Assembly: GCA_018396535.1 (NCBI GenBank)
Contig: JAGTQC010000003.1
Location: 988 to 64,987 of the forward strand
DNA length: 64,000 nucleotides
From: Candidatus Bathyarchaeota archaeon
GTDB taxonomy: Archaea > Thermoproteota > CALKCG01 > B24 > DRYS01
Direction: 5' to 3'
Shown here: one piece after another, positions 5,632 to 60,116 of the stretch
How positions within the stretch are numbered: the stretch's first letter is position 1
How the letters are laid out: every line of letters begins with the position of its first letter
Position numbers and translations under genes: made by a program
Notes under the pieces: generated by a model
Told to the model about the DNA's origin: nothing
Database searches by the model: none
What the model saw: only the letters and a program-made list of their open reading frames with translations

Positions 5632-5718
5632 GCCGGGGTAGCCTAGCCCGGTAAGGCGCCGGACTCGAGATCCGGTTCCCCTCATAGGGGATCAGGGGTT
5701 CAAATCCCCTCCCCGGCG
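5632..5718 (+). tRNA. tRNA-Ser (anticodon CGA) with a long variable arm
   Basis: Acceptor stem GCCGGGG/CCCCGGC. Anticodon stem CCGGA/TCCGG with loop CTCGAGA. Variable-arm stem CCCC/GGGG. T-arm GGGGTTCAAATCCCC. No encoded CCA. Confidence 0.85.
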
Positions 5719-5754
5719 CCTACAATCTATCCCCGCTATAACCCATAGACCGAG

Positions 5755-20084: not shown

Positions 20085-20552
20085 CTAGTATTCTGGTACG
20101 AATACTAGAGCAGCTACTGCAGATCCATATAACCCTGCGGGTACTCTTAAAACCTCTATCCTATAGCCTACATCCCTTAAGGCAACGCCTCTAACCTTAC
20201 ACATCTCGTTCAACCTAGCTTGTAGATTCTTCCTCAATTGCTCCTCATCCATATTACCGTGTACCTCAGCTACTAATCCGTAATCACTCCCCTCTATAAA
20301 CCCCCACGCTATCCCAGCTCCTAGCAATTCTCCCGGATCCCCCTCTATGTGAGCCATAACGGTGAACGTTATAGCTCCAGCCTCTATATTGTAGTAGTCT
20401 ATCATCACAGAGCCTCTAGGTATGATCGAACTAACCGGGACGAGGTTACATTGAGCTATACCTGCATTAATTAATGCCTGATCGAAAGCATTAAGTTTAG
20501 ATATAGCACTTAACGCCTTGCCACCTGTTACGAAGAACTTTTTAGGTAGGAT
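20085..20552 (-). CDS. pdaD: Pyruvoyl-dependent arginine decarboxylase (PdaD) proenzyme; start codon is non-canonical or unresolved
   Basis: I extended the track ORF (20085..20408, GTG start) upstream in frame. This recovers ILPKKFFVTGG...LNAFDQALINAGIAQCNLVPVSSIIP, including the Ser-Ser self-cleavage site. An in-frame TGA sits immediately upstream of the ATC at 20552. A GAGGTGGTG SD-like element lies 7 nt upstream. Confidence 0.6.
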   Translation of the reverse strand: MLPKKFFVTGGKALSAISKLNAFDQALINAGIAQCNLVPVSSIIPRGSVMIDYYNIEAGAITFTVMAHIEGDPGELLGAGIAWGFIEGSDYGLVAEVHGNMDEEQLRKNLQARLNEMCKVRGVALRDVGYRIEVLRVPAGLYGSAVAALVFVPEY

Positions 20553-39814: not shown

Positions 39815-39883
39815 TGGTTGAAATCCATATAGAATGTTATGGAAAAACTAGGAGGGGGTATACCAGATACCTATATACATAGA

Positions 39884-39956
39884 AGCCGGGGAGGGGATTC
39901 GAACCCCTGTGATGCGGGTCTGCAGCCCGCCGCCTACGCCTCTCAGCCACCCCGGC
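39884..39956 (-). tRNA. tRNA-Cys (anticodon GCA)
   Basis: Minus-strand sequence GCCGGGG...GCGGG-CTGCAGA-CCCGC...AGGGGTTCGAATCCCCT-CCCCGGC-T. 73 nt, no encoded CCA. Confidence 0.8.
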
Positions 39957-40055
39957 TCTACTATAGGAGGATAGGTGCTCGACTTCTATTAAGGTTTAAC
40001 TCTATAACCAGGCTTAGCTTTTTATACAGTGAAGCTTCAACTTATGGCTATCTAG

Positions 40056-49874: not shown

Positions 49875-50498
49875 ATGAGTAGTAGTGAAGTACCTAGTGG
49901 TGGAGGGGGTATCCTACTTCCGCTAGATCTAGCGTTATCATCAGGTATACATATAGGGTCTATGGTTAAAACGAAGCATATGGAACCATTCATATACAAA
50001 GTTAGAAGTGATGGCGTAAATATAATCAATATGGTAAAGATTATGGAGAGAATACAGATTGCCGCAAAATTCCTAGCTAGGTTTGTCCCGTCTGAAGTTT
50101 ATATAGTATCATCTAGAGTTCATGCACGTAAACCTGTATTAAAGTTCTGTGAAGTTACAGGATTTAAGCCGATAGTTGGGCGCTTCTTACCTGGCACCTT
50201 CACTAATCCAAGTTTAGCTACATATGTGGAACCTAAGGTCGTCTTAGTAGTTGATCCTAGAGTAGATGAGCAAGCTGTAGTAGAAGCTTCTAAAGTAGGA
50301 ATACCTGTGATTTCACTAGTGGATACGGATAACTCTCTCTCTAATGTAGATCTAGCTATACCATGTAATAATAAGGGTAGAAAAGCGCTAGCTATGGTAT
50401 TCTGGCTGCTAGCACGTGAAGTTTTAAGAGTCACAGGTACTCTATCACCAAGTGAGGATTTAAACATACCAGTGAAAGAATTTGAAGAGGAGGTATAA
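49875..50498 (+). CDS. rps2: Ribosomal protein S2
   Basis: LLAAGVHIG-like GIHIGS. Conserved C-terminal region. Operon position after eno. Confidence 0.85.
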   Translation: MSSSEVPSGGGGILLPLDLALSSGIHIGSMVKTKHMEPFIYKVRSDGVNIINMVKIMERIQIAAKFLARFVPSEVYIVSSRVHARKPVLKFCEVTGFKPIVGRFLPGTFTNPSLATYVEPKVVLVVDPRVDEQAVVEASKVGIPVISLVDTDNSLSNVDLAIPCNNKGRKALAMVFWLLAREVLRVTGTLSPSEDLNIPVKEFEEEV

Positions 50499-52806
50499 CT
50501 CTGAAGATATCATAGGTTTCCTGGTTAGAGTTAAAGGCATAGTTCAAGGTGTAGGTTTTCGTCCATTTATATATCGTTTAGCACATAGATATAATCTTAA
50601 GGGCTACGTTAAGAATCTTAAGAATGGAGATGTAGAGATATACATCGAGGGTGTTAGCTCATCCATCTGCAAATTTATGGATGATCTAATTAGGGAGAAG
50701 CCGCCGATAACCGTTATAGATTGTATTGAAACATTTGAAGTAGAACCTAGAGGAGAGGAGACTTTCAGAATAGAAAAAAGTGGTGAAGAAGGTAGGAGCA
50801 AAGGTTCGATTATACCTCCAGATATAGCTATATGTGATTCATGTTTGAAGGAACTTAGGGCACCATCCAATAGACGTTATAAATACTTCTTTATAACGTG
50901 TACAGATTGTGGCCCCAGATTCACGATAATAGAGAGGCTTCCGTACGACCGTATAAATACTTCGATGAAGATATTCGACATGTGTAGTGAATGTTTTAAC
51001 GAATATACGAACCCGTTAGATAGGAGATTTCATGCTCAAACTATAGCATGCTCTCGATGTGGTCCCAAAGTATATCTTACGGATAATCATGGAGTTAAAG
51101 TGGAATGTGCAGATCCTATACTGGAGGCTAGTAGGCTTATAGATGAAGGCCTCATAATAGCTGTGAAAGGCTATGGTGGTTTCCATATAGCTACAGCTAC
51201 TACGATAGATGAACCTATTAGGAGGCTTAGAGAAAGGAAGGGTAGGAAGAATAAACCATTCGCTATAATGGCTAGGGATATTAAGACTATAGAAGGCTTC
51301 GCTGAACTAACAGATATCGAAAGGAAGCTTCTAGAAAGCTATATGCACCCAATAGTCCTGTTGAAAAAGAACAAAGATTACTACCTATCAGATCTTATAG
51401 CTCCAAACTTGCATCTTATTGGTGTAATGTTGCCGTACACTGGATTACATATACTTTTATTTGAGGGTACGAAAGAACCAGCCCTGGTTATGACAAGTGG
51501 TAATGTATCTGGTCAACCTATAGTTAAGGATGATGACGAAGCTATATCCAAACTTGGTAAGCTAGTAGATTATATATTATTCCATGATCGACCTATAGTA
51601 CAAAGATGCGACGATTCCGTGGTCAAGATAGTAGATGGTGAGCCATTGATTGTTAGAAGGTCCAGGGGGTACACACCTATGCCCATCAGACTTAAATACA
51701 ATGCCAATCTAGATATACTCGCACTAGGATGTGAGGAAAACGTTGTAGCATGTATAATCAGAGGTAACGAAGCATACCTTACACAGCATATAGGAGATAT
51801 GGACGATATAGAATCTTTGGTCTTCCTTAAAAAATCCATAGAACATTTCATAAACCTATTGTCGGTCAATCCTAAAATTATAGTATGTGATCTTAATCCG
51901 CGTTTTGCTACGACGAGATTAGCCTTTGATATGGCTAGAGTAATGCATATACCCGTAATTCAAATCCAACATCATGCAGCTCACGCATATAGCCTATTGG
52001 CAGAGTCAGGGTTAGATGAAGCTATTATAGTAGCTGCTGATGGCTTCGGCTATGGTTTAGATAGAGCTGCCTGGGGTGGTGAGATTATTCATATATCTAA
52101 GGATGGATGGACAAGGATAGGCCATTTAGAGGAGCATCCCATGGTAGGTGGTGATCTAGCTACTCGTTATCCTGTAAGAATGGTTATAGGTATACTTAAG
52201 GATGATCCTAGAATAGAGGAATGGGTTAAATCTAGGATATACATGCTGCCACACGGCGAGAGGGAGTTAGATGTAATATTCAATCAGCTAGAGAAAGGTG
52301 TATATACACGTACAACTAGTTGTGGTAGGTTATTGGATGCTGTGTCAACTCTACTTGGTATATGCTTCGAAAGGACCTATGAAGGTGAGCCAGCTATGAA
52401 GCTTGAATCAGCAGCTCAAGGAGGAGAAGATATCTTGCACTTAAACCCATTATATAACGGCGATGTCATCATCACTAAGGCATTAATAGAATCAATTTTC
52501 GATAACCTCGATAGGGTCAGTAGGAAGGATTTAGCCTATTCAGCTCACATCTACATAGCTAGAAGCTTCGCGCATTATGTTGTTGATAAAGCATTAGAGC
52601 TAGGTGTAAAGCATGTAGGATTCACGGGTGGTGTAGCCTACAATGGTATTATAATTAGAGAGTTTAGAAGGATTGTGGAGAGTGAAGGGTTAAACTTCGT
52701 GAAGCATAAACTAGTACCAGCTGGTGATGGAGGGATATCACTTGGTCAATCATACTATGCATTACTCAGTTCATCTGCGAGGATAATCCATATACCGTCC
52801 AGTTAA
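50482..52806 (+). CDS. hypF: [NiFe]-hydrogenase maturation carbamoyltransferase HypF
   Basis: Acylphosphatase domain (VQGVGFRPF). Two CxxC-x18-CxxC zinc fingers. YrdC-like and Kae1/YgjD-like carbamoyltransferase domains. 774 aa; TTG start overlapping the S2 stop. Confidence 0.85.
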   Translation: MKRRYNSEDIIGFLVRVKGIVQGVGFRPFIYRLAHRYNLKGYVKNLKNGDVEIYIEGVSSSICKFMDDLIREKPPITVIDCIETFEVEPRGEETFRIEKSGEEGRSKGSIIPPDIAICDSCLKELRAPSNRRYKYFFITCTDCGPRFTIIERLPYDRINTSMKIFDMCSECFNEYTNPLDRRFHAQTIACSRCGPKVYLTDNHGVKVECADPILEASRLIDEGLIIAVKGYGGFHIATATTIDEPIRRLRERKGRKNKPFAIMARDIKTIEGFAELTDIERKLLESYMHPIVLLKKNKDYYLSDLIAPNLHLIGVMLPYTGLHILLFEGTKEPALVMTSGNVSGQPIVKDDDEAISKLGKLVDYILFHDRPIVQRCDDSVVKIVDGEPLIVRRSRGYTPMPIRLKYNANLDILALGCEENVVACIIRGNEAYLTQHIGDMDDIESLVFLKKSIEHFINLLSVNPKIIVCDLNPRFATTRLAFDMARVMHIPVIQIQHHAAHAYSLLAESGLDEAIIVAADGFGYGLDRAAWGGEIIHISKDGWTRIGHLEEHPMVGGDLATRYPVRMVIGILKDDPRIEEWVKSRIYMLPHGERELDVIFNQLEKGVYTRTTSCGRLLDAVSTLLGICFERTYEGEPAMKLESAAQGGEDILHLNPLYNGDVIITKALIESIFDNLDRVSRKDLAYSAHIYIARSFAHYVVDKALELGVKHVGFTGGVAYNGIIIREFRRIVESEGLNFVKHKLVPAGDGGISLGQSYYALLSSSARIIHIPSS

Positions 52807-53280
52807 CTGTGAAATACGAATCTGATTCCTCGTTATAATACTTCTTCACTTTAGGATTGTAATAAGCTAGATTTGGATGATATATCAAAATCATGTGAAC
52901 CAGATCATCCACTCCAGTTTTTATGACAGCTCCATGCATACGGCTATAATTTTAGAGCTAGTACAACTATAGGTTCATCATTAACTGCTCCTTTAGACAT
53001 AATACATAACCTTCTAAGATCATACATGTGCAGTGTATTGACTAAAATTAACTAAAATTATATGTTTTCATCTAGAAATATAAAGCTAAAACTCGTAAAC
53101 GATTTACCTTTGATATCTCCTCGATAATCAGAGTCTATCCTACCTATCATTAATATATTCGCATTGAGAAATTCCCCCTTATAGATTATACTTCTTATGC
53201 GAATATGAATTAACTTCGATTATTGGATATATTTATAATATATTGTTATATACGATAGAGTTCAGTTCATCAAGCATTAA

Positions 53281-54276
53281 TTATAATATATCATATGGTA
53301 TCTTAAGTTTTCTACGAATATTTTCAGAATCCTTCTCTATTCGTGATGACAGAGCCTTCTCTAAGAGCTCTCTAAATTTGGGATAACTCATTTCCTGTTC
53401 TTTAATCCATTCTTTAGAAAATGTACCTGAAATTATCTCTTCCAAGCTCTTAACCATAGGTTCATATATTTTATCGATGTACCTATCTATACGGGATAGC
53501 TGTCCATATTGGCTGGTTTTAGAGTGGAGTATGAGCTGTCCTAATAAGCCTAGTTTACATACTTGTCGAAAAACTTCTATAAGCTCGCCAGAAGCTATAA
53601 GCTCTGTTAATACAGCTTCAACACTATATCCTTTAGACACGAGTATTTCGTAGGCTCTTAAGAAAGCTGAGATTATTACAGGCATAACGGCTTGTTCGGT
53701 GAATAAATCGAGTTCGGTTTCTTCTTCAAAGCTCGATTCTATAACTCCTGCACGTGTAAACCCTAAAGCTTTAGCTAAAGCTAGAATTCTAGACCATGCA
53801 GCTCCAGTTACATCCTGTCTAATAGCTACAAAGGCGGGGGCTCCATATCCTAGTTCATATAGTCTTCTTACGCCAACCCCTATCATTCTAGGAGCTAGTA
53901 ACCCTACATCTATGTCATTACGTGGAATTATTAATCCATACCTTATGGAGAAGCCATGAGCAAATACTATCATGCACCCAGTCTTTATATTAGGCTCTAT
54001 ATCCGAGTAATACACTATCCTCTGAACTTCATCTGGTATGAGAATGCAAATTATATCCGACTGTCTAGTAGCATCGCTTATATCGTATACATAGAACCCA
54101 TCAGATAACGCCCTATCCCAATACTCATCTTTAATATTCCCTACGATAACGTTTAAGCCACTATCCCTCAAATTCATAGCCCATGCTCTTCCCTGATTAC
54201 CGTATCCTAGGATTCCGATAGTTAGGTTATTTAACACGGATAGCGTTGCATCCTCATCATAGAATATCCGAGTCAA
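53281..54276 (-). CDS. ilvC: Ketol-acid reductoisomerase (class I)
   Basis: IGILGYGNQGRAWAMNLRDSG NADPH motif and overall KARI architecture. 331 aa. Confidence 0.85.
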   Translation of the reverse strand: MTRIFYDEDATLSVLNNLTIGILGYGNQGRAWAMNLRDSGLNVIVGNIKDEYWDRALSDGFYVYDISDATRQSDIICILIPDEVQRIVYYSDIEPNIKTGCMIVFAHGFSIRYGLIIPRNDIDVGLLAPRMIGVGVRRLYELGYGAPAFVAIRQDVTGAAWSRILALAKALGFTRAGVIESSFEEETELDLFTEQAVMPVIISAFLRAYEILVSKGYSVEAVLTELIASGELIEVFRQVCKLGLLGQLILHSKTSQYGQLSRIDRYIDKIYEPMVKSLEEIISGTFSKEWIKEQEMSYPKFRELLEKALSSRIEKDSENIRRKLKIPYDIL

Positions 54277-54361
54277 ATTATCACCAGTATCCCCTCAAAA
54301 CATACTTCAATATTTAAAATTAACTGTGTAGATCATACATAAGACTTAACTATATAGAGGT

Positions 54362-55210
54362 TTGAATCCTAATACGATGGTGTACGTGACTAAAGCTGAT
54401 GGTAGTAGGCAACCATTCGATTTAAGTAAGGTGTATAGAACATGTTTGAAGATGAATATACCAAGAGAGTATATCGATGCTATATGCAGGAAAGTGGAGG
54501 AGAAGGTTTACGATGGTATAGCGACAAAGGATATATTAAGAATAATCCGAGATGAAGCTAGTGTATTCGATTCATCATACTCGTGGATATCTGATCTAAG
54601 ATCTGCTATATCTAGACTTAGATCTAAGCCTGATTTCGAGCAGTATGCGCGTCTCATCTTGGAGTCTTTAGGATTTCAAGTTGCTCCAAACCAGATCATA
54701 AGAGGCGAATGTGTAGAGTATGAATTAGACGGATTATTACTCAAAGATGGTCAGATCTATATCCTAGAAGTTAAACATCATACAAATCCCCACGAGAAAG
54801 TGGATCTAACAGTGGTACTTAAGGTTAGAGCTATAGTAGAGGATTTACTATTGGGTTATGAAAAGAGAATAAATCAGATTAAGATATCGGGAGGATATAT
54901 CGTCACCAACGCAAAGTTTACTGATCATGCAATGAGATACGCTAAGTGTAAAGGTATAAACCTTCTAGGATGGGGTACATATGAGGATATAGAGAGGATT
55001 ATATTAGAGAATAGGCTTCATCCAATAACTATCATAAGCGATCTTGATGGATTGGAGCTGCAAACCCTAGCCGATATGGGTCTTGTAACACTTAAACAGA
55101 TCATAATGTTCACTCCAGATAAATTATCGGTTATAACAGGTATAGGAATCGATAGATGTCAGGAAATACTAGCGAAGGCATACGAATTCTTCAAGAAGCT
55201 TGGAAGTTAG
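54362..55210 (+). CDS. ATP-cone domain protein fused to a restriction-endonuclease-like (PD-(D/E)xK-like) core and a C-terminal helix-hairpin-helix
   Basis: N-terminal VTKADGSRQPFDLSKV...ICRKVEE ATP-cone-like region. ECVEYELDGLLL...ILEVKHH nuclease-fold-like motif. C-terminal LSVITGIGIDRCQEIL HhH. Confidence 0.45.
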   Translation: MNPNTMVYVTKADGSRQPFDLSKVYRTCLKMNIPREYIDAICRKVEEKVYDGIATKDILRIIRDEASVFDSSYSWISDLRSAISRLRSKPDFEQYARLILESLGFQVAPNQIIRGECVEYELDGLLLKDGQIYILEVKHHTNPHEKVDLTVVLKVRAIVEDLLLGYEKRINQIKISGGYIVTNAKFTDHAMRYAKCKGINLLGWGTYEDIERIILENRLHPITIISDLDGLELQTLADMGLVTLKQIIMFTPDKLSVITGIGIDRCQEILAKAYEFFKKLGS

Positions 55211-56265
55211 CATATCCTAGGTACTGGGTCGCCTAACGGTGGAGGTATAATTCTCTTGCCACCGATTAAAGTCTCCATAGCTACACCTTCAAATTCGTCT
55301 GTAGCTTCACCTATTATAGCAGCATCTTTTCCTTCGTCAGTTTCTCTTAAAACTTCTAAGATCTCTTCAGCCATCTCTGCTACTACAGCTAGGACAACCT
55401 TACCCTCATTTCCTATCTCCAGTGGATCTATACCGAGCATTTCACATGCAGCTCTCACACCCTCCCTTATAGGTATATCTTCTTCTTTAATCAGTATACC
55501 TACATGCGATTTCTCACTCCACTCATTGAGTAGGTTAGCTAAACCGCCTCTTGTAGGATCCTTCATAGATACTACACCTCCTACTGATAACACTTTCTCT
55601 ATCATCCTATTTAGAGGTCTGACATCAGATTTTATACTACTCTCAAATCCATACCCTTCTCTACAGCTTAGTATAGCTACCCCATGATCCCCTATAGTCC
55701 CTGATACTATTATCTTATCCCCAGGTCTAATATTGGAATCTAGAAGCCATCTAGCTTCAATCCCTCCTCTGAACCTACGTACAACATCTATGTTATAATC
55801 TAGGTATTGGCTCCTTACACCTATTCCAGAACAATTTATTATGCATCCATCTAATGATCCTTTCTCAACAACTTTAGTATCGCCTGTGACTACATATACA
55901 TCAGCTTCTCTACATGTAGAGGCTATACTCTGCATAATTCTATCTAGATCATAGATAGGAAATCCCTCCTCTAATACGAGAGCTAGCGATAAAGCTATAG
56001 GTTTACCCCCCATGACAGATATATCGTTAACTGTACCTGAAACAGCTAGCCTGCCTATATCCCCACCTGGAAAGAATAATGGTTTGACGGTGTAGGAATC
56101 AGATTTAAAAACCACGTCATTAACTACAGCAGAATCATCTAAAGCGTGCAGCCCTACTTCGAAGTTATCTCTAGGCAGGATGGATAATATGTGCTCCTTA
56201 ATAAGCCTGTGCATAAGATACCCACCAGCTCCATGAGCCATAACTATCCTATCAGATTTATCCAT
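55207..56265 (-). CDS. hypE: Hydrogenase maturation protein HypE (PurM-like), C-terminal PRIC
   Basis: MAHGAGG N-terminus, AIR-synthase-related fold, conserved C-terminal ...PRIC cysteine. Confidence 0.8.
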   Translation of the reverse strand: MDKSDRIVMAHGAGGYLMHRLIKEHILSILPRDNFEVGLHALDDSAVVNDVVFKSDSYTVKPLFFPGGDIGRLAVSGTVNDISVMGGKPIALSLALVLEEGFPIYDLDRIMQSIASTCREADVYVVTGDTKVVEKGSLDGCIINCSGIGVRSQYLDYNIDVVRRFRGGIEARWLLDSNIRPGDKIIVSGTIGDHGVAILSCREGYGFESSIKSDVRPLNRMIEKVLSVGGVVSMKDPTRGGLANLLNEWSEKSHVGILIKEEDIPIREGVRAACEMLGIDPLEIGNEGKVVLAVVAEMAEEILEVLRETDEGKDAAIIGEATDEFEGVAMETLIGGKRIIPPPLGDPVPRIC

Positions 56266-56339: not shown

Positions 56340-57260
56340 ATGACAGAAGCTGTTGCTCCAGGTAAAATAATAATATGTGGAGAGCATTTCGTAGTATATG
56401 GTGAACCAGCTATAGTAGCCGCAGTAGATCTTAAAGCATATGCCTATGCTTCATTTGTAGATGAACTAGGTATACATATATACTCTAGTAGAGTATCCGA
56501 AGTCTCGTTACGGCCTATACATGAGGTTATAAAGCTTCTTTTAGAATCTAGGAATGTAAGGTTAGATAATAGGGGTATAGCAGTATCGATTAATTCAGAA
56601 ATACCGATTTCTGCTGGTTTAGGTTCTTCCGCAGCTGTGGCTATAGCGTCAATCTTAGCAGTATCAAAGCTCTTAGGGCTTAAGCTTAAGAAAAGAGAAG
56701 TTATATCATTAGGCGTTAGGGCAGAAGAGTTTATTCATGGTAGACCTTCAGGTATAGATCCAACTATATCCACTTACGGAGGAATACTCCTATTTAAGCG
56801 TGGAGGAAGGGTTAGACGGATAAAACCCACTAAGCCTATGGAGTTTGTGATAGCCGATTCAGGTATAAAGAGATCTACAGGTATTATGGTTCGTAAGGTA
56901 GGTGAGCTTTCTTCAAAGTACCCAGAGGTATTTCTAGGATTACGGTATACGATGCGTAAGATTGTGAGAAGAGCTATGAAAGCTATAGTCGAAGGGGAAA
57001 TCGAAATACTGGGAGATATGCTTAACCTAAACCACGGGCTCTTATCTGCTATAGGTGTATCGAATAGTAAGTTGGAGAGACTTGTATATGTGGCTAGAGA
57101 GGTTGGAGCTTTAGGTTCGAAGATTACCGGTGCTGGTGGAGGTGGATGTATTATAGCTCTAGCTAAACCTGGAGAATCAGATAGGATTGCTTCATCTCTT
57201 ATAGATGCTGGTGCTGAAGCAGTATATAAGGCTAGGATAGCAGAGGTAGGTGCTATGTGA
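56340..57260 (+). CDS. mvk: Mevalonate kinase
   Basis: APGKIIICGEHFVVYG N-terminal motif. GLGSSAA GHMP-kinase motif. Confidence 0.8.
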   Translation: MTEAVAPGKIIICGEHFVVYGEPAIVAAVDLKAYAYASFVDELGIHIYSSRVSEVSLRPIHEVIKLLLESRNVRLDNRGIAVSINSEIPISAGLGSSAAVAIASILAVSKLLGLKLKKREVISLGVRAEEFIHGRPSGIDPTISTYGGILLFKRGGRVRRIKPTKPMEFVIADSGIKRSTGIMVRKVGELSSKYPEVFLGLRYTMRKIVRRAMKAIVEGEIEILGDMLNLNHGLLSAIGVSNSKLERLVYVAREVGALGSKITGAGGGGCIIALAKPGESDRIASSLIDAGAEAVYKARIAEVGAM

Positions 57261-58039
57261 TGATAGTCGTTAAGTTAGGTGGAAGCGTTATAACCGATAA
57301 GAGTAAGCCCTTATCGTTTAATGAAGATGTCTCCAGAAGGTTAGCTGATGAAATACTATCTACGGGCTTAAAGGATGTGATATTGGTTCATGGAGGGGGA
57401 TCTTTTGGGCATTACATAGCTTCAACTTACGGTTTAAACAAAGTGGTTAAACCCATATCTCAAGCTACACCAGGTCTTCTGGAAACCCATATGAGTATGC
57501 GTAGACTTACGGATAGGTTAGTAAGTGTATTTTCTAGTAAGGGTCTTCGTATATACCCAATCTCTGCTTCCAGCATAATGGTAGCTAGGAGAGGACGTAT
57601 AGATTCAATCTATCTAGAACCTATAAAGCTATCGTTTAAGATAGGATTAATACCTTTGTTACATGGTGATGTAGTCTTTGATTACGAAGATGGCTTCTCT
57701 ATCGTATCTGGGGATCAAGTAGCAGTTAGGTTAGCTTTAGAATTCAAAGCACATAAAGTTATCTTCGTGGTAGATGTAGATGGAGTCTATGACAGGGATC
57801 CGAGATCTGAAGGAGCCTCTCTTATAAGAGAGCTTAAGATAGAATTTCTAGAAGAAATATTTCCAGTATATAGTGGATCCATAGACGTGACGGGTGGAAT
57901 GATTTCTAAGCTTAGAGAAGCCTCGATTCTAATAGAGAAGGGTATAGAAGTATATATAATCAATGGTTTGAAACCGGGTCGTTTATATAGAGCGATTATG
58001 GGGTTTGATGTAGAAGGTACACGTCTAATCGGAGGGTAA
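57257..58039 (+). CDS. ipk: Isopentenyl phosphate kinase (amino-acid-kinase fold)
   Basis: VKLGGSVITDK...VHGGGSFGH. Position between mvk and fni. Confidence 0.75.
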   Translation: MMIVVKLGGSVITDKSKPLSFNEDVSRRLADEILSTGLKDVILVHGGGSFGHYIASTYGLNKVVKPISQATPGLLETHMSMRRLTDRLVSVFSSKGLRIYPISASSIMVARRGRIDSIYLEPIKLSFKIGLIPLLHGDVVFDYEDGFSIVSGDQVAVRLALEFKAHKVIFVVDVDGVYDRDPRSEGASLIRELKIEFLEEIFPVYSGSIDVTGGMISKLREASILIEKGIEVYIINGLKPGRLYRAIMGFDVEGTRLIGG

Positions 58040-58047
58040 GATGGTAT

Positions 58048-59118
58048 TTGAATATAGAAGTGAGAAAAAATGAGCATATAGAAATATGTCTCACTAAGCC
58101 GGTCGAAGCTGAGAGAGAGACTACATGGCTCGAATACGTATACCTCCCTCATAGAAGCCTACCTGAAGTAGATCCAAGAGATATAGATCTAGAAATAGAT
58201 TTCCTAGGCTTCAAATTCTCCGCACCCATAATGGTTTCAGCTATAACCGGTGGCAGTAATCTAGGATTCAAGATTAACGCGAATATAGCAGAAACCGTGG
58301 AGAAGCTTCGATTAGGTATGTGTGTAGGTAGTCAGAGGATACTACTAGAGAAACCAGAGTCTATATACAGCTTTAAGATAGTTAGAGATAAGGCTCCTAC
58401 AGCATTCATATCTGCTAATATCGGTTTTCAAGAGTTGAGGAGATATGGTGTAGATAGATTGGTGGAACTGATAGAATCTATAAGGGCTGACGCTCTAACT
58501 ATACATTTAAACCCTCTACAAGAGCTACTGCAAGTCGAAAGTGAACCTATGTTTAGAGGGCTATTATCCGCGATGAAAGATATAGTGAAAGAGCTTAAAA
58601 TACCGGTTATCGTTAAGGAAACAGGTGCAGGTATAATTCGTGAAGATGCGGCTAGATTAGAGGAGATAGGCGTGAAAGCTATAGATGTTGCTGGTTTAGG
58701 TGGTACAAGCTGGTCTAGGGTGGAATATTATCGTGCGATAAGATGGCATGATGATATAAAGGTGGAAGTATCTAAAGCCTTTTGGGATTGGGGTATACCT
58801 ACCGCTGCTAGTATACTTGAAGTTAAATCCGCAACTAGAAACATTAAGTTAGTAGCTTCTGGTGGGTTAAGATCAGGAGTAGATATGGCTAAAGCAATAT
58901 GTCTCGGTGCCGATATGTGCGCAATAGCTCTACCCATACTTAAGCCAGCGCTTAAAAGTGCCCAGGAAGTAGAGAAAACTCTAAAGACGTTTATCGAAGG
59001 ATTGAGGATAGCTATGGTACTTACAGGCGTATCAAAGATAGATGATCTTAAGAAGATTAAACCTATAATTGTAGGTAGGCTAGCAGAGTGGGTGAATAAA
59101 AGGGGGTTGAATAGTTGA
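58048..59118 (+). CDS. fni: Isopentenyl-diphosphate delta-isomerase type 2 (FMN-dependent)
   Basis: KNEHIEICL N-terminus. FMN-binding TIM barrel with ...VKETGAG...ASGGLRSG... Confidence 0.85.
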   Translation: MNIEVRKNEHIEICLTKPVEAERETTWLEYVYLPHRSLPEVDPRDIDLEIDFLGFKFSAPIMVSAITGGSNLGFKINANIAETVEKLRLGMCVGSQRILLEKPESIYSFKIVRDKAPTAFISANIGFQELRRYGVDRLVELIESIRADALTIHLNPLQELLQVESEPMFRGLLSAMKDIVKELKIPVIVKETGAGIIREDAARLEEIGVKAIDVAGLGGTSWSRVEYYRAIRWHDDIKVEVSKAFWDWGIPTAASILEVKSATRNIKLVASGGLRSGVDMAKAICLGADMCAIALPILKPALKSAQEVEKTLKTFIEGLRIAMVLTGVSKIDDLKKIKPIIVGRLAEWVNKRGLNS

Positions 59119-60116
59119 GCAATCTTTTAGATGAGATAAAAGCATGTTGCGAGGTGGTAGATAGGTATATATTTGAGCTTCTAGAATCCGATAAAGATAT
59201 ACCTGTTCTCTACGAATCTAGTATCCATTTATTTAGAGCTGGTGGGAAGCGTGTAAGGCCTTTCCTAACTATGAAGTCATGTGAAGCTGTAGGAGGGGAC
59301 CCGTACATATCTATACCGTTCGCTTCAGCTATCGAAATTCTTCATACCTTCACGTTGATTCATGATGATATAATGGATGAAAGCGATACCAGGAGGGGGG
59401 TTCCTACAGTGCATACAATCTGGGGTATACCTCAAGCTATAACATCTGGAGACTATCTTTTTGCAAAGGTATTTCAAGCTATATGTAGATTCAAGGATAT
59501 CGAGAAGGTAGGCTATGATAAGATCACGAAGATAGCTGCTATGATAGCTGAAGCTATGATAGATATAGCTAAGGGTCAAACTCTAGATATGCTTCTACAA
59601 TCTAGGATGGATGTTTCAGAGGAGGAATGCCTTGAGATGATAAGATTGAAGACAGCTAGACTCTTCCAGGTATCTGCAGAGATAGGTGCTCTCATAGGTA
59701 GATGTAGTAGTGAAGAGTTCGAAGCCTTATCTAGATATGGTTTAAAAGCTGGTCTGGCATTTCAGATAGTGGACGATATATTAGGGCTGATAGGTAGTGA
59801 GGAAGAGTTAGGTAAACCAGTAGGTAGCGATCTTAGGGAGGGTAAAAAGACTTTGATAATAGTGTATAGCCTTAAGAATCTCCCACCTAAGAGTAAAGGT
59901 ATCGTTACCAGGGTTCTCGGTAGAAGGGATGCATCAGATAGTGATGTAAGAAGAGCGATCGATACACTCATACGTTATGGATGCATAGACTATGCTAGGA
60001 GTATAGCTCTAAAATTTAGGGATGAAGCTATAGAGGCTATATCTAGAATCAAGCCTAGCCCTAGTAAGAGGAGTCTTGAGGAGTTAGCAAAGCTATTCGT
60101 AGATAGGAGATTATAA
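59115..60116 (+). CDS. idsA: Geranylgeranyl diphosphate synthase (short-chain trans-polyprenyl synthase)
   Basis: First DDxxD (IHDDIMDESD) and second aspartate-rich (FQIVDDILG) motifs. Confidence 0.8.
   Translation: MSNLLDEIKACCEVVDRYIFELLESDKDIPVLYESSIHLFRAGGKRVRPFLTMKSCEAVGGDPYISIPFASAIEILHTFTLIHDDIMDESDTRRGVPTVHTIWGIPQAITSGDYLFAKVFQAICRFKDIEKVGYDKITKIAAMIAEAMIDIAKGQTLDMLLQSRMDVSEEECLEMIRLKTARLFQVSAEIGALIGRCSSEEFEALSRYGLKAGLAFQIVDDILGLIGSEEELGKPVGSDLREGKKTLIIVYSLKNLPPKSKGIVTRVLGRRDASDSDVRRAIDTLIRYGCIDYARSIALKFRDEAIEAISRIKPSPSKRSLEELAKLFVDRRL

Follow-up and report, generated by a model that had tools for sequence, protein, structure and literature searches.

The gene described here lies on the plus strand of the window, the whole 64-kb stretch of DNA that was analysed, and its product joins an ATP-cone, a nuclease domain and a helix-hairpin-helix (HhH) domain. 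We call it the cone-nuclease gene. The features of the locus are as follows, with residues counted along the open reading frame:

50482-52806, plus strand: hypF, two positions upstream of the cone-nuclease gene
53281-54276, minus strand: ilvC, the left neighbour
54351-54356, plus strand: candidate archaeal TATA box, TATATA, about 24 nt 5' of the ATG at 54377, found by sequence inspection
54362-55210, plus strand: open reading frame with a TTG start, 282 aa, stop codon TAG at 55208-55210
54377-55210, plus strand: probable true coding sequence with an ATG start, 277 aa, from the alignment of homologues
54383-54625, plus strand: ATP-cone domain, residues 8-88, a beta-hairpin with K11-A12-D13-G14 followed by a four-helix bundle
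54626-55009, plus strand: Mrr_cat or AF1548-type PD-(D/E)xK nuclease domain, residues 89-216
54638-54640, 54728-54730, 54767-54769 and 54773-54775, plus strand: codons of the predicted catalytic residues E93, D123, E136 and K138, respectively
55010-55207, plus strand: C-terminal HhH domain, AF1548-like_C, residues 217-282, similar to the N-terminal domain of RadA/RAD51
55207-56265, minus strand: hypE, the right neighbour, convergent

Almost all of the approximately 370 homologues are 265-290 aa long and align from the methionine encoded at 54377 (M6 of the open reading frame). Because of these lengths and starts, together with the spacing of the TATATA element, the true start is probably ATG 54377 and not TTG 54362. 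Judged from the nucleotide sequence, the mRNA is probably leaderless and begins from the TATATA at 54351-54356, a putative promoter. At the 3' end, the gene runs into the convergent hypE, with a 4-nt overlap that includes the stop codon.

A preliminary description had the gene wedged between hypF and hypE and considered this position, together with ilvC, to be odd. The hypE flank stands; the hypF flank does not, as ilvC is the immediate left neighbour. The order hypF, UDG, ilvC, cone-nuclease gene, hypE and mevalonate-pathway genes is found only in relatives with about 77% protein identity, which are collinear with the window throughout this 17-kb region (nucleotide identity about 78%); the hypF/hypE/ilvC setting is absent from all more distant loci examined. 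Because it is limited to these relatives, the placement carries no functional signal, and we reject a functional linkage to hypF/hypE in favor of lineage-local synteny. Genes for beta-CASP, AMP phosphorylase, RuBisCO and R15P isomerase were all absent from the 64-kb window in a tblastn search. Only a PvlArgDC gene was matched in the same search, approximately 34 kb from the cone-nuclease gene. The gene thus stands alone in the window, with no informative local context, as a typical and well-conserved member of its family; therefore, its role rests on family membership.

The three domains were called in the preliminary description, and Pfam, a structural homologue and a predicted model together support all of them. 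Judged against the curated gathering cut-offs, Pfam ATP-cone (PF03477) matches residues 8-66 (29.9 bits, cut-off 25.8) and Mrr_cat (PF04471) matches residues 89-202 (30.6 bits, cut-off 21); AF1548-like_C (PF22357, residues 221-273, 15.8 bits, cut-off 23.9) and HHH_5 (residues 236-271, 13.8 bits, cut-off 27) fall below theirs. NCBIfam gave noise-level matches only for the window protein. A phmmer search of PDB sequences matched 1Y88, the structure of AF1548, over residues 96-274 (E=1.6e-19). The AlphaFold2 model, computed from a 36-sequence alignment, has a pLDDT of 93.7 and a pTM of 0.85, and its structural neighbours include AF1548, the nucleases NucS and Can2/Card1, the cones of NrdR and ribonucleotide reductases (RNRs), and the HhH domain of RadA/RAD51. 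The protein is thus a three-part one, consisting of a predicted adenine-nucleotide sensor, a predicted intact nuclease domain and a predicted DNA-binding tail.

In the model, the nuclease core consists of a helix at residues 88-102, strands within 106-138, a helix at 149-167 and a strand at 177-186; the predicted alpha-beta-beta-beta-alpha-beta core with its E...D...(D/E)xK signature has the fold of the Mrr_cat group. The ELD...ILEVK motif noticed earlier corresponds to D123, E136 and K138, which are aligned by phmmer with D38, E51 and K53 of AF1548, the predicted catalytic triad of that protein (PMC1821046, PMC1874628). We aligned 374 full-length relatives; the archaeal query or profile had supplied 256 of them and its bacterial counterpart 118. 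E93, D123, E136, K138 and D161 are 100% invariant across archaea and bacteria, and C117 and C196 are 93-100% conserved. As the first four of these residues, the predicted catalytic ones, never vary, the domain reads as catalytically intact and not degenerate, and the suggestion that it might be an inactive Mrr-like remnant does not apply. With the domains correct and the catalytic residues conserved, the earlier reading of a nucleotide-sensing, DNA-cleaving protein is a reasonable one. Behind the nuclease domain comes a helical domain of the AF1548 C-terminal type, as in the AF1548-like architecture; it has an (HhH)2 fold with hairpins of the Gly-hydrophobic-Gly type, including ITGIG at residues 258-262.

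The N-terminal domain is modelled as a beta-hairpin capping a four-helix bundle, the fold of an ATP-cone, and a profile of the family N-termini matches the cones of RNR R1 proteins (E=0.0035-0.05). We aligned the family cone to E. coli NrdA, in which K9, R10, K21, T55, H59 and K91 contact the nucleotide (PMC11447812). The hairpin Lys (NrdA K9) is K11 in the family (97-100% conserved), the helix-1 Lys (K21) is K23 (about 97%), and the helix-3 Thr (T55) is T55 (at least 95%); position 80, which is K or R in 100% of members, would lie in helix 4 and be the likely equivalent of K91. At the two other contacts, the phosphate-clamp R10 is replaced at position 12 by Ala in 78% of members (Arg in 1.6%), and H59, responsible for ribose discrimination, by Leu, Tyr or Phe at position 59. 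The hairpin of NrdR is K-R-D-G, whereas that of the cone-nuclease family is K-A-[D/S]-G. By these residue patterns, the cone pocket is under strong selection yet differs from the RNR and NrdR pockets, and because the Arg of the canonical KRDG clamp is replaced, the ligand may be other than ATP or dATP.

The family is large. Searched against 1.84 billion cluster representatives (50% identity), the archaeal profile found 501 clusters at E<=1e-30, and the best 150 of these are nearly all 260-295 aa long with full-length matches. A GTDB scan found the gene in 276 species genomes; the loci kept from it belong to Bathyarchaeia, Aenigmatarchaeota, Thermoprotei, Nitrososphaeria, Culexmicrobium and Asgard lineages. 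A protein from a Bathyarchaeia MAG is 98% identical to that of the window, and members from Bathyarchaeia, Aenigmatarchaeota and Asgard archaea share approximately 40% identity, with very uniform length and sequence. Full-length bacterial homologues show 26-27% identity; a search seeded with the Pontibacter protein gave at least 7,522 clusters of this architecture (90% identity), and the named matches are mainly from Bacteroidota. These proteins are entered in databases as "restriction endonuclease", "ATP cone domain-containing protein", "ATPase" or "Holliday junction resolvase". The protein had been introduced as one without a standard annotated archaeal function, but NCBI already names the family, and AF1548 (1y88) has been placed in the Mrr_cat/COG1787 group, group 50 (Steczkiewicz et al. 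2012, PMC3424549). Among the full-text papers searched, neither experimental nor comparative work on the cone-nuclease fusion turned up, nor did biochemical data for any family member; for AF1548/1Y88, only fold-level predictions and the Mrr_cat group placement were found. The fusion is a large, catalogued and functionally uncharacterised archaeal and bacterial family of fixed architecture.

For archaea, we clustered the neighbour ORFs of 76 non-redundant loci. There is no universal partner gene, and the commonest neighbour families reach 11 of the 76 loci:

ScpB, in some loci together with SMC: 11 of 76
HhH-GPD glycosylase: 11 of 76, in five directly downstream and co-directional
dCMP deaminase: 9 of 76, often divergent and adjacent
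R15P isomerase (IF-2B family): 8 of 76, in three arrangements, with RuBisCO III and/or AMP phosphorylase in most
Type-II P-type ATPase: 8 of 76
Lhr helicase: 6 of 76
PvlArgDC: 6 of 76
PfkB kinase: 5 of 76, upstream and co-directional, with a pyridine-nucleotide-disulfide oxidoreductase between it and the cone-nuclease gene

In eight Bathyarchaeia loci, the gene adjoins or lies near a cluster of AMP phosphorylase, RuBisCO and R15P isomerase genes, and in five Bathyarchaeia loci the R15P isomerase gene is the divergent neighbour, 22-69 nt away. This association with the salvage pathway concerns a minority of archaeal loci (8/76) and represents perhaps 3-4 independent events. Neither a methyltransferase nor an RNR gene is among the annotated recurrent neighbour families of the 76 archaeal loci. 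The repair and chromosome neighbours in archaea (HhH-GPD, Lhr, ScpB, SMC and UDG) suit a role in DNA repair equally well.

The bacterial set consists of 84 loci, 80 of them from a metagenome scan, and for 67 the sequence reaches more than 1.5 kb downstream of the gene. In 43 of these 67, the next gene downstream, co-directional and separated by a median of 14 nt, encodes a beta-CASP nuclease (Lactamase_B, Beta-Casp and RMMBL domains); the operon continues with an AMP-phosphorylase-like gene, whose product has about 500 aa, in 25/67 and with a Prs-like gene in 21/67. Among all 84 loci, a type-II P-type ATPase gene adjoins the cone-nuclease gene in 29, a tandem USP gene is present in 18 (mostly just upstream), an AAA_28 protein in 17, a GAPDH-like gene in 13-14 and a downstream PPK2 in 7. 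Plasmids of Pontibacter (Bacteroidota) and Criblamydia (Chlamydiota) carry the same operon with the cone-nuclease gene first, followed by genes for an MBL-fold hydrolase, a "thymidine phosphorylase family" protein and ribose-phosphate pyrophosphokinase; around the Criblamydia copy lie genes for phosphoketolase, glycogen phosphorylase and acetate kinase. The theme of the bacterial neighbourhoods is adenylate or energy stress combined with the breakdown of nucleic acids and nucleotides. A gene that leads an operon, or is transcribed away from one, also has a position typical of a regulator. In addition to the P-type ATPase genes, the bacterial islands hold metal-efflux genes and a multicopper oxidase, so the co-location may reflect a shared stress regulon and not one pathway.

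We tentatively propose that the family is an adenylate-gated nuclease that feeds nucleotide salvage, a reading to which we give somewhat less than an even chance; the gene product would be a cytoplasmic enzyme built of the three domains. The salvage role is proposed because of the operon links to beta-CASP, AMP-phosphorylase-like and Prs-like genes. ATP-cones of NrdR and RNR work via nucleotide-dependent oligomerisation (PMC12176259, PMC5794259). By analogy, the N-terminal cone would bind an adenine nucleotide, and its occupancy would shift the quaternary state or the domain packing, as it does in RNRs and NrdR. The shift, probably through oligomerisation, would switch the nuclease on or off, thus coupling cleavage to the adenylate or dATP status of the cell, while the (HhH)2-like domain at the C-terminus would grip nucleic acid without sequence specificity. 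Under energy or nutrient stress, the cone-nuclease might make the first cut in nucleic-acid turnover; in bacteria, the products would go to exonucleolytic breakdown by the beta-CASP partner. Phosphorolysis of NMPs and salvage of the ribose phosphate would then follow, through AMP phosphorylase, R15P isomerase, type III RuBisCO and Prs. The pathway of AMP phosphorylase, R15P isomerase and type III RuBisCO is an established one and was reportedly described by Sato et al. in 2007 and Aono et al. in 2015. In this scheme, the domain architecture, the fold, the conserved residues, the family size and the gene neighbourhoods are observed, and the inferred parts are ligand binding, gating, the nature of the substrate (DNA or RNA) and the role in physiology.

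A bolder version of this proposal, which we regard as speculative and rather doubtful, is that the NMP-degradation (pentose-bisphosphate) pathway of archaea and bacteria has this family as a hitherto unrecognised point of entry. Here, the K-A-x-G cone would read the adenylate charge, and at low energy it would permit cleavage of the cell's own RNA or DNA by the PD-(D/E)xK nuclease. The beta-CASP partner would trim the fragments, and either AMP phosphorylase, R15P isomerase and RuBisCO, or Prs and PPK2, would turn them into carbon, phosphate and ATP.

Three other explanations need to be weighed. First, the protein could be a DNA-repair or structure-specific endonuclease, similar to NucS/EndoMS or Hjc and tuned through its cone by ATP/dATP, that acts on damaged or branched chromosomal DNA together with glycosylases and helicases. 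The resemblance of the C-terminal domain to the DNA-binding N-terminal domain of RadA/RAD51 fits this explanation, as do the archaeal neighbours listed above, namely HhH-GPD (five of the 11 directly downstream and co-directional), Lhr and ScpB/SMC, and the UDG gene that lies two genes from the cone-nuclease gene in the closest relatives. However, no single repair partner is conserved, the match to NucS is confined to the nuclease domain (118 aligned residues), and the dominant bacterial operon, with its AMP-phosphorylase-like, Prs-like, PPK2 and USP genes, is metabolic and not a repair operon. We consider a repair nuclease unlikely.

Second, the protein could be an adenylate-sensing transcription factor, functionally an NrdR analogue as the preliminary description had suggested, in which the nuclease-fold and HhH domains only bind DNA and the cone controls binding at the operators of an adjacent stress or salvage operon. 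There is a precedent in NrdR, where a cone is joined to a DNA-binding module and nucleotides control oligomerisation (PMC12176259); the bacterial operon typically starts with the cone-nuclease gene, and the short divergent spacing between this gene and the R15P isomerase gene in the five Bathyarchaeia loci would suit a regulator. Against this, the complete invariance of the four catalytic residues and D161 in 374 sequences is unexpected for a fold that only binds, and many loci, including the window, have no plausible target operon. Proximity to RNR genes had been put forward as a check, and no RNR gene is among the annotated recurrent neighbour families of the 76 archaeal and 84 bacterial loci, which argues against an NrdR analogue. 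A regulator of this kind therefore seems quite improbable.

Third, we give little credence to an Mrr-like type IV restriction or abortive-infection nuclease that is triggered or licensed by changes of the nucleotide pool during infection and attacks foreign or modified DNA: Mrr_cat scores above its Pfam cut-off, members carry the NCBI name "restriction endonuclease", MspJI, AspBHI and Shedu SduA are further structural neighbours of the model besides Can2/Card1, and two bacterial copies are plasmid-borne, but a PADLOC scan gave only an insignificant Csx1 match (E=0.023), 50,697 phage records gave zero matches, the recurrent neighbour families include no methyltransferase or recognised defence gene, the flanking genes are housekeeping or metabolic, the uniform length and sequence are unlike those of fast-evolving defence genes, and the N-terminus carries an ATP-cone with no Mrr_N by Pfam. 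On the absence of Mrr_N and of phage matches and on the insignificant PADLOC result, the type IV restriction enzyme Mrr proper was rejected as an identity for the protein. Overall, the neighbourhoods suggest recycling of nucleic acids into nucleotides under energy stress in preference to restriction or RNR control. Because of this neighbourhood evidence, the public label "restriction endonuclease" is unsupported and probably wrong for the family.

The result that is specific to the window is modest, as the gene is unexceptional within its large family. To our knowledge, ATP-cones outside RNRs and NrdR have been little studied. If the cone gates the nuclease, this allosteric module would extend to nucleic-acid degradation, as a parallel, in housekeeping metabolism, to the coupling of CARF domains and nucleases in CRISPR ancillary enzymes. 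The operon link to beta-CASP, AMP-phosphorylase-like, Prs-like and PPK2 genes suggests a source of NMPs for the archaeal AMP-phosphorylase/RuBisCO pathway, and this context gives a hypothesis that is testable in culturable Bacteroidota. If the entry-point version were true, the protein would be the first ATP-cone-gated nuclease, a switch for "self-digestion for energy" common to Bacteroidota, Bathyarchaeia and other archaea.

Of the systems already known, the Archaeoglobus fulgidus protein AF1548 (PDB 1Y88, a structural genomics entry of unknown function) shares the nuclease and C-terminal HhH domains with the window protein but has no ATP-cone: the alignment starts near residue 25 of its 199-residue chain, opposite residue 96 of the query. 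Where the window protein has HH139-140, AF1548 has FH. NrdR consists of a Zn-ribbon and a C-terminal ATP-cone, whereas the window protein has an N-terminal cone followed by nuclease and HhH domains; Pfam finds no Zn-ribbon in it, and it does not belong to the NrdR type. From the archaeal mismatch endonuclease NucS/EndoMS, the protein differs in both its N- and C-terminal modules, and the nuclease domain alone aligns. E. coli Mrr, of the Mrr_cat/COG1787 group, shares the catalytic-domain family (PF04471); Mrr proper combines it with an N-terminal Mrr_N domain for DNA recognition and acts in the restriction of modified DNA, while the window protein has an ATP-cone and an HhH domain, and the family has housekeeping or metabolic neighbours. 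Finally, Can2/Card1, the cA4-activated PD-(D/E)xK nucleases of type III CRISPR systems, sense through a CARF domain, in the place of which the window protein has an ATP-cone, together with an extra HhH domain; unlike Can2/Card1, the cone-nuclease family is found outside any CRISPR or defence context.

In bacteria, the homologue of the cone-nuclease gene (encoding the ATP-cone, PD-(D/E)xK nuclease and HhH protein) is the first gene of a conserved co-directional operon, found in Bacteroidota and on one Chlamydiota plasmid (compared loci L088:1972-6597, L089:5995-10602 and L093-L172). It is followed, in order, by genes for a beta-CASP nuclease, an AMP-phosphorylase-like protein, a Prs-like protein and an unknown 226-aa protein, and at some loci then by PPK2; upstream of it are tandem USP and GAPDH-like genes. 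No account of such an operon was found in the literature searched.

Two further neighbours recur. A type-II P-type cation ATPase gene (Cation_ATPase_N/C) adjoins the cone-nuclease gene or lies near it in archaea and bacteria alike, namely at archaeal loci L012, L049, L063, L072, L074, L076, L078 and L085 and at 29 of the 84 bacterial loci, and the two genes overlap in a Flavobacterium genome (L091:1658-4282); no mechanistic connection between them is obvious. The gene for pyruvoyl-dependent arginine decarboxylase (PvlArgDC) directly adjoins the cone-nuclease gene in Aenigmatarchaeota and is two genes off in Thermoprotei loci; in the window the two are ~34 kb apart. The window features concerned here and below are as follows:

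5632-5720, + strand, tRNA-Ser(CGA), Rfam/ARAGORN
20097-20549, - strand, PvlArgDC homologue, 37% identity, E=8e-25
39882-39957, - strand, tRNA-Cys(GCA), Rfam/ARAGORN
52807-53280, hypF-ilvC gap, 475 nt, AT-rich
52826-52942, - strand, uracil-DNA glycosylase (UDG) remnant, 39 aa, 46% identity to residues 151-189, E=5e-8
56340-60116, isoprenoid cluster, co-directional, directly after hypE

On the hypE side, the cone-nuclease gene shares its last 4 nt (55207-55210) with the 3' end of hypE, which runs convergently, and the identical overlap occurs in the closest relatives, L006 and L008. hypE encodes a protein whose last residues, ...PRIC, are the HypE C-terminal motif. The isoprenoid cluster comprises mevalonate kinase, isopentenyl-phosphate kinase (AA_kinase), type-2 IDI (FMN_dh) and polyprenyl synthase, identities that are Pfam families read by synteny from L006. 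On the other side, the hypF-ilvC gap contains the UDG remnant only; relatives with ~77% protein identity carry an intact 205-aa UDG (PF03167) at the equivalent position. The UDG gene is mostly deleted or decayed in the window genome. Across the whole 64 kb, neither Rfam nor ARAGORN found RNA genes beyond the two tRNAs.

The Bathyarchaeia MAG JZ-2_201705_bins_140 holds two non-identical copies of the cone-nuclease gene on separate scaffolds (L016 and L038), both in the same context of PfkB, Pyr_redox, the cone-nuclease gene and then convergent genes. This pair could reflect strain heterogeneity of the bin or a duplication.

Within the protein itself, several conserved residues may bind a metal or have a structural role: C117, C196, H139, H140 and D161. 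The two histidines directly follow the ExK motif and belong to the archaeal branch. D161 is 100% invariant among the 374 full-length relatives aligned; C117 and C196 are 93-100% conserved in the same set, and both cysteines are present in AF1548 of Archaeoglobus fulgidus.
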